55,420 nucleotides of DNA, taken from a virus (taxonomy: Duplodnaviria > Caudoviricetes). Positions 25,812 to 27,944 of this stretch are shown here, piece by piece. The position numbers were made by a program, and so were the translations under genes. How positions within the stretch are numbered: the first letter of the stretch is position 1; the number at the start of each line of letters is the position of its first letter. The notes beneath the pieces were generated by a model. It worked only from the letters and a program-made list of their open reading frames with translations, did no database searches and was not told where the DNA came from. The stretch is from IMG/VR virus record IMGVR_UViG_3300024254_000010, positions 1 through 55,420 of that record. One strand, given 5' to 3'.

Positions 25812-25902
25812 TCTGGCAAAATGCCATAGTCCACGGCTTTTGCGCTAGTCCGTTTTATTACGGATAGACCCCTAGTCATTTTTCTGATTGGCTTGGGGAT
25901 GT

Positions 25903-26100
25903 ATGGCATTTAAGCCACCCAAAGTCGGTGATCCGGTGATTTATTGTGTCGATTCTCCGACGCTGGGCATTAGTCGAGAGCCAGTGAGGATAAGTCGCAT
26001 TACAAAGTCCGAGATTTTTGTGGCTTCCAAATGTGCTCGATTCACTCGCGATGGGAAAGTCATCGGTGGACGAGGCAACAAGTGGCTGGAACCATGTTGA
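25903..26100 (+). CDS. Small beta-rich hypothetical protein
   Basis: KVGDPV...VRISRITKSEI...RFTRDG. Confidence 0.55.
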   Translation: MAFKPPKVGDPVIYCVDSPTLGISREPVRISRITKSEIFVASKCARFTRDGKVIGGRGNKWLEPC

Positions 26101-26492
26101 GAAACGAAATCCTTCGGCGTTTTCCCAATGCCAGTAAAGCCACCATCGCCAGGAACATTGGTGCTGATAACCAAACACCCAGTCCCGAGCCTCAATGCGC
26201 TGTTTGCCATGACTCATTGGCAGAGACACCGCGAGAAAAAGGCAACCTTGACCGCGTTGTTGTCCGCATTGTCTCCTTCCGCACTCGCTTACTCGATGCC
26301 GACAACTTGGTGGGAGGATCGAAGTATTTTACGGACGGCTTACGATACGCTGGCCTCATATCAGGCGATGCAGAAGCGCAAATCCGTCTTGAAGTCAGCC
26401 AGCAAAAAGTTAAGTCCAAAGCAGAGGAACGCACCCAAATCGAAATCGAACCGCTCGACCAAACGCCAGATTCAGGACATGACTCGTGCTGA
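26094..26492 (+). CDS. RusA-like resolvase, catalytic C-terminal half
   Basis: RTRLLDADNLVGGSKYFTDGLRYAGLISGD (DxDN..K...D...D). Confidence 0.7.
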   Translation: MLRNEILRRFPNASKATIARNIGADNQTPSPEPQCAVCHDSLAETPREKGNLDRVVVRIVSFRTRLLDADNLVGGSKYFTDGLRYAGLISGDAEAQIRLEVSQQKVKSKAEERTQIEIEPLDQTPDSGHDSC

Positions 26493-26613
26493 ACTAATCG
26501 AGGCTTACTGGGACAGTTGCTTTGGTTCGTGGAATCGTTCTGCTTTCGACGCGCTCATGGAAACCCTTTCGGATTCGGACTTGCGCCAATACATTCAGAT
26601 GGGCACAACTTAA
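26128..26613 (+). CDS. Overlapping ORF carrying the RusA-like N-terminal motif
   Basis: PVPSLNALFAMTHWQRHREKK; stop lies 7 nt before the next ATG. Confidence 0.6.
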   Translation: MPVKPPSPGTLVLITKHPVPSLNALFAMTHWQRHREKKATLTALLSALSPSALAYSMPTTWWEDRSILRTAYDTLASYQAMQKRKSVLKSASKKLSPKQRNAPKSKSNRSTKRQIQDMTRAELIEAYWDSCFGSWNRSAFDALMETLSDSDLRQYIQMGTT

Positions 26614-26620
26614 CTCCGCA

Positions 26621-27322
26621 ATGACGCGCCTCAAATCGCTCACTTCTTTCCCGCCCTATGGGTTCCGCTATATCAACCCTGTCTTCGGAATGAAGAAGGA
26701 TGACGAAGGCTCCTTCTCTGTCGTCTGCCAGAAGGAATTGGCCCGGCGCAAAGCCAACAAATATCTGTGCGAGAAGCATAACCTCGGCCTGGACATGATC
26801 AGCGTTGAGTACGACGTGGAACAGCAGAACGTGGCCCGGTGTCTGGCCCATGGCTGGCATGATTTCGTGGTCACTGACGCGCCCGTGACCCGCTACGTGG
26901 CTGATGGGTCAAAAAAAAACAGGTTCGGCAATGCTGCGGGAGGTCTTAAGAGGGTGGCGGCGGGAGTTGGCGTACTTCTTGATTGGCTTGGGAGTGGAGG
27001 AAAGCCCGTCGATCAAGCCACGGCTGAGCATCGGGCAAATGTGTGCGCAACTTGCCCAAAGAATGATGGAGGCGATTGGAAGGCTTACTTCACTGGAAAG
27101 ATTGCCGATAAAATCAAAACGCAATTGCTGATGAAGCAGGACCTGCAATTGTGGACGAGTCAGGACGACAAGCTCACGGTCTGCTCAGCCTGTGACTGCC
27201 CATTGCAACTCAAGGTGCATACGCCGTTGGTCCATGTGCTGGCCCACACTGACGACGAAGTGAAGAAACGGCTGGCAGAGGGCTGTTGGATTCTTGCAGA
27301 GGAAAGAAATAATGACCGATAA
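26621..27322 (+). CDS. Conserved Cys-rich phage protein
   Basis: RANVCATCPKN...CSACDCPLQLKV...CW. Confidence 0.7.
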   Translation: MTRLKSLTSFPPYGFRYINPVFGMKKDDEGSFSVVCQKELARRKANKYLCEKHNLGLDMISVEYDVEQQNVARCLAHGWHDFVVTDAPVTRYVADGSKKNRFGNAAGGLKRVAAGVGVLLDWLGSGGKPVDQATAEHRANVCATCPKNDGGDWKAYFTGKIADKIKTQLLMKQDLQLWTSQDDKLTVCSACDCPLQLKVHTPLVHVLAHTDDEVKKRLAEGCWILAEERNNDR

Positions 27323-27944
27323 TCTTCAAGCACGCAGGTTTGGGAAGTGGACAGTTATTGGCAATGGTCGGTCCCAATTTTGTTTGTGCCGATGCGAATG
27401 TGGCCAGGAGAAGCCAGTGTACAGATACGACTTGCTCGGCGGAACTTCGCGCCAATGCGTCCGTTGTCATGCCTTCAAACACGGCCACACGGTTGATTAC
27501 AAGCCATCTCGTACCTATGCATCTTGGATGTGCATGAAGCGGCGTTGTTTAGATCCAAGGTACAAAGACTGGGAAAATTACGGTGGCAGAGGAATTACCC
27601 TGCATGAGCCTTGGCACTCATTTGAGAATTTCCTAGCTGATATGGGAGAGCGACCAGTCGGTACGTTGCTCGACAGAATTGACGGGCGCGGAAATTACGA
27701 GCCGGACAATTGTCGATGGGCTTCTTTCGCAGAAAGCGCGAGAAATCGCCTTAGTACTAGATGGATAATCTATCAGGGACAGCGAATGACCGTAAGTGAT
27801 GCCGCCAAAAAAATCGGTGTCCCGATAACATCTCTGCACAGTCGATTACGGCGGGCTGGCTGGCCGTGTGCGGACATCGAGCCATTCGCTAGGAGTAAGC
27901 GCAAGTCGCCATCGCTGAAAACGCTCATTAGCACTAAGCCATGA
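27312..27944 (+). CDS. HNH-type homing endonuclease
   Basis: CRCECG; YGGRGI...FENFLADMGERP...LDRID...NYEPDNCRWA. Confidence 0.85.
   Translation: MTDNLQARRFGKWTVIGNGRSQFCLCRCECGQEKPVYRYDLLGGTSRQCVRCHAFKHGHTVDYKPSRTYASWMCMKRRCLDPRYKDWENYGGRGITLHEPWHSFENFLADMGERPVGTLLDRIDGRGNYEPDNCRWASFAESARNRLSTRWIIYQGQRMTVSDAAKKIGVPITSLHSRLRRAGWPCADIEPFARSKRKSPSLKTLISTKP

Follow-up and report, generated by a model that had tools for sequence, protein, structure and literature searches.

A putative RusA-like resolvase divided between two overlapping reading frames of a viral genome

How is a single enzyme fold encoded when its N-terminal half and its catalytic half lie in different reading frames of the same DNA? 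This question is raised by a locus in IMG/VR virus record IMGVR_UViG_3300024254_000010 (Caudoviricetes), a complete viral record of 55,420 bp that is referred to here, at its full length, as the window. A preliminary description of this DNA, made from its sequence alone, had noticed two overlapping open reading frames (ORFs) that divide between them the motifs of a Holliday-junction resolvase that resembles RusA, and had proposed either a programmed −1 frameshift or an enzyme assembled from two overprinted polypeptides. Here, we report that the two-frame layout is real, conserved among relatives, and under selection, with both frames kept open. The answer that we favor, with a probability of roughly two in three, is that a pair of reciprocally overprinted polypeptides comes together as a single RusA-type fold.

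Layout of the two frames and their recurrence in relatives

Both ORFs and their segments lie on the plus strand. ORF A (26128 to 26613) encodes 161 amino acids (aa) plus a stop, comprising a front half, a basic tail out of frame with B, and a 44-aa C-terminal domain. ORF B (26094 to 26492) encodes 132 aa plus a stop, comprising a two-helix N-terminal mini-domain, a linker, and a RusA-like catalytic core. As had been described, both ORFs begin at ATG and overlap by 365 nucleotides (nt; 26128 to 26492); frame A is the +1 frame of B, such that passage from A to B is a −1 step. Frame B is open from 26031, and the ATG taken as its start is that at 26094. The gene-like spacing to the neighbors was also borne out: the upstream ORF (25888 to 26100) ends in a stop that overlaps the ATG of B, and the ATG of the next ORF (26621) follows the stop of A by 7 nt.

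Read in frame A, the sequence is TLVLITKHPVPSLNALFAMTHWQRHREKKATLTALLSAL, next a Lys/Arg/Ser-rich region, and finally the 44-aa segment. The PSLN motif lies at 26185 to 26196, W31 at 26218 to 26220, and K37-K38 at 26236 to 26241. Residues 10 to 50 of A (26155 to 26277) are predicted to supply a strand, the PSLN and HW.R motifs, and a helix, which would be the missing front half of the fold, and residues 51 to 117 (26278 to 26478) form a Lys/Arg/Ser/Thr-rich tail that runs out of frame over the B core. Frame B encodes, in order, a short N-terminal motif, a Pro/Glu-rich region, and DRVVVRIVSFRTRLLDADNL...K...D...GD...IEIEP. Its residues 1 to 21 (26094 to 26156) carry the conserved motif ELxRRFPNASxSF.xRN in two short helices; residues 22 to 52 (26157 to 26249) form a linker over the A-coded half, open and with no amino acid constraint in frame B; and residues 53 to 120 (26250 to 26453) form the catalytic core, with a strand, D68-x-D70-N71, a helix carrying K77, D92, and two further strands. 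Within LLDADN, D68 is encoded at 26295, D70 at 26301, and N71 at 26304. The proposed division, with the N-terminal motif half in A and the catalytic half in B, was recovered both in the window and in the loci of relatives.

A query with frame B returned 15 homologues (54 to 76% identity) covering ORF B, and a scan of viral contigs confirmed 127 relatives out of 263 pattern matches, from which 79 loci were fetched. Local tblastn over these 79 loci found the first 55 residues of A in 77, the B core in 66, the B N terminus in 40, and the middle of A in 19. With one profile per half, a search of all 85 fetched loci found both halves in 83 (78 viral and 5 bacterial), A was the +1 frame of B in every one of the 83, and the starts of the two profile hits were separated by 89 to 104 nt. 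The tblastn of each frame that the preliminary description had suggested found both halves recurring across loci. That description had also held that frame A should be conserved if the division is genuine, and the front half of A is both present in 83 of 85 loci and under selection (see below). In one locus (L015), the +1 frame holds an A-like half that has diverged (TPSQN...HWSKSRK); another candidate (L086) proved to be a spurious pattern match and was rejected.

At E ≤ 1e-3, the A-half profile matched the representatives of 281 clusters (50% identity), 88 of them at E ≤ 1e-10. The family, with at least 281 such clusters, extends over soil, freshwater, and marine viral contigs and Verrucomicrobial genomes. 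Five bacterial genome records hold the two-frame locus (L081, L082, L083, L084, and L085). Two of these, L081 and L083, are Verrucomicrobium sp. BvORR106 and BvORR034, which are strain-named and carry no label as metagenome-assembled genomes; the occurrence in bacterial records suggests that Verrucomicrobia are hosts of some family members. A first pattern scan of genome contigs with one alignment gave 9 matches, none of which was confirmed, and among 50,697 GenBank phage records tblastn found no match for ORF B of the window or of a relative (L014). Gene callers report one of the two ORFs per locus, usually B, and frame-A ORFs have been called in other contigs (P0017 to P0022). Because only one ORF is reported, annotation lists such resolvases either as hypothetical proteins or as RusA-like but truncated, and overlooks the second subunit.

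An assembly indel, for which a check of the reads had been advised, was sought in four public soil-metagenome runs that were assembled separately. Over 25900 to 26900, at word depths of 13 to 41, the contigs of all four run assemblies were free of indels and differed by no more than one substitution. The runs containing the window DNA are soil metagenomes, and three of the four may be the source of the window DNA itself.

Open frames, start codons, and selection

Frame openness was assessed in 50 unique loci, 31 of them non-redundant. Over the 32 codons that encode the A half, frame B was free of stops in every locus (50/50 unique; 31/31 non-redundant), compared to 12.8 and 8.7 loci expected from synonymous resampling with the codon usage of flanking genes, and 33.7 and 20.3 expected from permutation of codons within the region. 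In the flanking genes themselves, the −1 frame was open in 552 of 1619 windows of equal size (0.34 per window). Frame A, in turn, stayed open for at least 45 codons past its helix in 43/50 unique and 24/31 non-redundant loci; the median open length was 52 codons, versus about 12 in simulation (Fisher combined chi-square of 148 with 62 degrees of freedom, loci being treated as independent). It ends right after the helix in three loci (L002, L011, and L033) and 33 to 40 codons further on in four (L007, L009, L038, and L056). The A tail is therefore usual but not obligatory. It shows no amino acid constraint (frame-A ratio of nonsynonymous to synonymous polymorphism [pN/pS] of 0.92 to 1.31), and it is strongly basic: 28 of the 31 tails reach at least 30 aa, and their final 30 residues have a median net charge of +9.5. 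The chains of 132 and 161 residues in the window compare to about 95 to 130 residues in most relatives. In four loci (L023, L031, L042, and L058), ORF B carries a different C-terminal extension (e.g., ...DLLDRAKAG...), and the frame-A stop falls about 35 codons before the B stop, where the core gives way to the extension.

Each frame also has its own start. A start codon lies upstream of the structured part in both frames in every non-redundant locus (31/31): for A, ATG in 28 and GTG in 3, and for B, ATG in 26 and GTG or TTG in 5 (hand count). The A and B starts are separated by one to three codons in the shortest family members. Frame B encodes its N-terminal motif in 17 of the 50 unique loci, the window included. 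Most of this motif precedes the A start; frame A contains stops there, and variation is highest at the third frame-B position. Since this motif is coded in frame B where A is closed, B would be translated from its own start and would reach its core unshifted, which would leave the A start as the sole origin of the A half. The P-N/Y/H-A codons of this B motif contain the A start codon in several loci.

Codon-position entropy, calculated from an alignment of 49 distinct sequences, switched from one frame to the other along the locus. From the first strand through PSLN, W.R, and a conserved Gln (W+10, counting codons from W31), the most variable position was the third of frame A; beginning with the strand that precedes D.DN, it was the third of frame B. 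Pairwise pN/pS among 29 non-redundant sequences (2 of the 31 were omitted because of an indel) gave the same picture. In the front half, frame A gave a ratio of 0.47 and frame B one of 1.26; in the D.DN block, it was 0.38 in frame B and 1.31 in frame A; and in the following helix block, it was 0.41 in frame B and 0.92 in frame A. Purifying selection thus acts on both frames, on A over the front half and on B over the core, and each is relaxed where the other is structured. In A, P11, S12, N14, R24, K28, and L39 (A-half numbering) were invariant in 31 sequences, as were D68, D70, N71, K77, and D92 of ORF B, with R63 and R65 invariant or nearly so.

At the junction of the two structured parts, about 6 codons, W+12 to W+17, were constrained in both frames (29 of the 31 non-redundant loci). 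This doubly constrained stretch (26251 to 26274) comprises A codons W+11 to W+18 over the first B strand from R54. The Arg that opens this strand is encoded by CGC in 20 loci, AGA in 5, and CGA in 3, with AAA (Lys) in 1, and is thus maintained through both the CGN and the AGR families. Five codons on, the A Leu at W+17 is invariant (TTA in 20, TTG in 9), the overlapping B codon being NTT throughout, and A residue W+13 is hydrophobic in every one of the 29 sequences. The observation in the preliminary description that the helix after KK overprints the first strand of frame B, with both frames apparently constrained, is consistent with this codon usage. No linear reading with a single −1 shift can include the B Arg together with the A Leu downstream.

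Comparison with RusA and a modeled joint fold

The closest known system is RusA of Escherichia coli (prophage DLP12; PDB 1Q8R, 2H8C, and 2H8E), together with PHROG families 34 and 1682. The RusA-like family phrog_34 was matched by 29 of 31 family cores and phrog_1682 by 23 of 31 (best E near 1e-8); the B core of the window matched PHROG RusA-like families at E of 6.9e-5 (phrog_1682) to 1.1e-4. By the available part of the structural account, the RusA monomer has a four-stranded mixed sheet with two flanking helices, its critical residues are D70, D72, K76, and D90, D91 lies in the cation site, and residues 66 to 69 form an Arg-rich DNA-binding region (PMC1636454). ORF B resembles RusA, as far as this account covers it (R66 to R69, D70, D72, N73, K76, and D90/D91), in having an Arg-rich strand end, D-x-D-N, a helix Lys, and a later Asp. 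B holds the equivalent of RusA residues 52 to 118, without the first strand and first helix. The catalytic residues lie in this aligned stretch, and their residue-by-residue equivalence would follow from the numbering. On its own, B does not amount to the RusA fold, a single chain of about 120 residues: it accounts for three of the strands and one helix, and frame A encodes the first strand and helix. Unlike RusA, whose fold is encoded continuously, the family has its first strand and helix in a second ORF shifted by one base. It also differs in having one more residue between the Asn and the Lys in most members, in an A half that has no long flexible loop (RusA residues 15 to 28), and in three additional elements: the B N-terminal motif, the A basic tail, and the 44-aa C-terminal domain.

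The Pfam RusA family (PF05866) matched neither frame A nor frame B at E ≤ 1, and no match was found at E ≤ 10 in a six-frame search of the record. The A half had no sequence match to RusA in Pfam, in a PDB profile search, or in a PHROG scan of 41-aa front halves. PDB sequence-profile searches with the core and with the front half gave only chance-level rows and no RusA. With Foldseek, the B model had no match in the PDB at E ≤ 0.001; RusA chains ranked 15 and 31, with probabilities of 0.90 and 0.89.

We modeled the two chains separately and together. The AlphaFold2 model of ORF B had a mean predicted local distance difference test (pLDDT) score of 84. Its core (strand 55 to 63, helix 69 to 86, and strands 97 to 105 and 113 to 120) scored above 90 and its N-terminal helices (3 to 9 and 15 to 21) 93 to 95; in the linker (residues 21 to 50), the means of successive 10-residue blocks were 74, 66, and 57. 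In the model of ORF A alone, residues 10 to 50 scored 89 to 97, blocks of the tail averaged 51 to 77, and the helical C-terminal domain scored 78 to 89. A 1:1 complex model that paired the B core (68 aa, 31 alignment rows) and the A half (41 aa, 31 rows) reached a score of 0.73, compared to 0.01 for the best of 3 controls, although the halves of a split fold may pass such a test because of their likeness to solved single-chain structures. Of 157 solved complexes, 116 attain the mark used for complex models, as do 2 of 215 mismatched pairs; these rates hold only roughly here (own alignments were used). The complex runs shared at least 96% of contacts, with partner pLDDT of at least 87. In the modeled interface, A residues 2 to 10 pair with the last B strand (61 to 66, in the numbering of the modeled segment) with low expected error, and the A helix packs on the B helix through positions 27-28, 31-32, 35-36, and 38-39. 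Two of these A-half positions, 35 (Phe, W+13) and 39 (Leu, W+17), are the interface residues conserved in the doubly constrained stretch. In the complex model, the halves fit together as one RusA-like unit, as had been supposed for an enzyme made of two polypeptides; a joint fold of this kind does not by itself establish separate chains.

Together, the open frames, the start codons, the switch in selection, and the modeled joint fold agree with the earlier suggestion of an enzyme formed from two overprinted polypeptides. Two same-strand, near-fully overlapping genes, one base apart, would divide a RusA-type Holliday-junction resolvase between them, with one structured half in each. ORF A, translated from the ATG at 26128, would supply the N-terminal strand, the PSLN...HW.R loop, and the first helix, followed by an unconstrained basic tail and, in this phage, by the small C-terminal domain. 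ORF B, translated separately from the ATG at 26094, would supply the two-helix motif, an unconstrained linker, and the strand-helix-strand-strand core with D68, D70, N71, K77, and D92. The structured half of each protein would thereby overlie the unstructured half of the other. On assembly, the A strand would join the sheet beside the last B strand and the A helix would pack on the B helix, and the completed RusA-like unit would presumably dimerize and cut junctions as RusA does. As to origin, an old frameshift in a RusA-type gene was probably rescued by fragment complementation and then fixed, leaving a resolvase that is a hetero-oligomer of reciprocally overprinted chains.

Several points weigh against this proposal. 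The confidently modeled N-terminal helices of B might stand in for the first helix, and the Pfam RusA profile matches neither frame. The assignment of A as the probable front half of RusA draws on its motif, its position, and the complex model. The long open tail is not fully explained, since A stops after the helix in 3 of 31 lineages and the tail is unconstrained, and the openness statistics treat as independent loci that are related.

The phage lambda spanin genes Rz and Rz1 offer a partial precedent, being same-strand genes in a +1 frame relation whose products bind each other into one complex. The present locus is like them in that A lies in the +1 frame of B on the same strand and the products are proposed to form one complex. 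It is unlike them in that Rz and Rz1 are two different membrane proteins and not halves of one enzyme fold, and in that Rz1 is embedded in Rz, a one-sided arrangement, whereas here the overlap is reciprocal, with structured and unstructured halves alternating. In the available records of the literature on RusA or Holliday-junction resolvases with frameshifts, overlaps, overprinting, dual coding, or split genes, no such layout was found. Most descriptions of overlapping genes pair an old gene with a newborn one that is often disordered. If the proposal is correct, both members of the present pair would be old, each encoding a folded piece of one enzyme that complements the other, and reciprocal overprinting would have locked in a natural instance of protein-fragment complementation. 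An essential fold would then have survived a frameshift that afterwards became irreversible, because any indel breaks both genes.

Alternative readings, the C-terminal domain, and neighboring genes

One alternative is that a programmed −1 frameshift, or another form of recoding, fuses the A front half to the B core, with unshifted A as a by-product or second isoform. In the −1 frameshift genes dnaX, lambda G/GT, and those of IS3 transposases, an N-terminal part in one frame and a C-terminal part in the −1 frame overlap, and the order and fixed spacing of the halves across the 83 loci resemble such a gene. A partial shift would also permit selection on both frames downstream. The G_AAA_AAG that had been pointed out at 26235 to 26241 (plus strand) is present after the frame-A motif, is in phase with A, and encodes its conserved Lys-Lys; N_AAA_AAG occurs at this Lys-Lys in 8 of 31 non-redundant loci. 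However, a canonical X_XXY_YYZ heptamer was found between W−2 and W+13 in only 4 of the 31 loci, the window having only G_AAA_AAG, and the nucleotides at the site vary (GAG AAG AAG, CTG AAG GAG, TTG AAA CAC, and others). In the window, the 89 nt downstream fold with −24.5 kcal/mol (z of −1.05), and 33 of 200 shuffled sequences were at least as stable. Fusion at G_AAA_AAG would moreover omit F(W+13) and L(W+17) of the A helix, which are conserved and lie in the modeled interface. Unlike dnaX, lambda G/GT, and IS3, the family has no conserved heptamer, and both frames are open nearly end to end with their own starts; an open frame B upstream (31/31), B starts, and a frame-B N-terminal motif (17/50) are not needed for a frameshift. 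The proposed slip at G_AAA_AAG is not supported by these data, and we consider recoding of any kind quite unlikely. A backward re-reading hop of about −22 nt, which would join the A helix to the first B strand, was also considered and rejected, there being no precedent for it and no conserved take-off or landing codons in the alignment. PRFect lists 'RusA/RuvC' among genes known to have a frameshift, yet this lends no clear support to a RusA frameshift: among its references 35 to 42, the only entry naming RuvC, Holliday junctions, or an endonuclease was that of Sharples and Lloyd (1991), which concerns the product of ruvC.

Alternatively, ORF B alone could be the nuclease, its own N-terminal helices replacing the front half, with A a separate small basic protein of another role, such as DNA binding or regulation, that resembles a RusA front half only superficially. 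The confident model of B by itself, at both its core and its N-terminal helices, would fit this idea, as would the strongly basic A tail and the lack of a sequence match between the A half and any RusA profile. Against it, the B N-terminal motif is present in only 17 of 50 unique loci versus the A half in all, and B has no counterpart of the first strand of the four-stranded RusA sheet (PMC1636454, available part). The complex model places the A strand beside the last B strand (0.73 versus 0.01, with the same reservation about single-chain likeness), and the fixed spacing and phase of the halves would be hard to explain if their functions were unrelated. We consider this reading unlikely. A broken gene or an assembly error, that is, a single-base indel in an ordinary RusA-like gene, is highly improbable given the same offset in 83 of 83 loci holding both halves, the 281 A-half cluster representatives, purifying selection in each frame, and the four indel-free run assemblies.

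The preliminary description had also considered that homologs might prove to be single-frame. Among the best 150 of 281 A-half profile hits, none had D.DN in the same chain as the A half, and no intact single-frame protein was found. Seven hits join the A half to the distal B core in one frame, with different junctions (P0068, P0094, P0159, P0035, P0116, P0098, and P0060), and all seven are without the first strand, the D.DN block, or both. One of them, P0068, appears to be L077 minus a block between two GAAAA repeats (32 nt, hand count). These proteins look like sporadic deletions or sequencing errors and not like an ancestral form.

The last part of frame A had not been recognized earlier as a separate conserved domain. 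This 44-aa helical domain (26479 to 26613, plus strand; TRAELIEAYW...YIQMGTT) lies in frame A in the window and in two relatives (L005 and L006); L002 to L004 and 9 of 15 database homologues have it joined in frame to B. The link between core and domain is 25 nt in the window versus 24 nt in L003 (hand count), and the window version was confirmed by the run assemblies. Attachment to either chain would be expected if A and B sit in one complex; having its own ATG at 26479, the domain could also be made separately. It had no match to a Pfam or PHROG family at a meaningful E value.

Directly downstream of the locus is a 233-aa ORF (26621 to 27322, plus strand) with the Cys-rich strings CATCPKNDGG and CSACDCPL and no PHROG match, which by its sequence may be a candidate zinc-binding protein. 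An HNH endonuclease gene (phrog_374, E of 2e-46) lies at 27312 to 27941 on the plus strand, two genes downstream of the resolvase locus.

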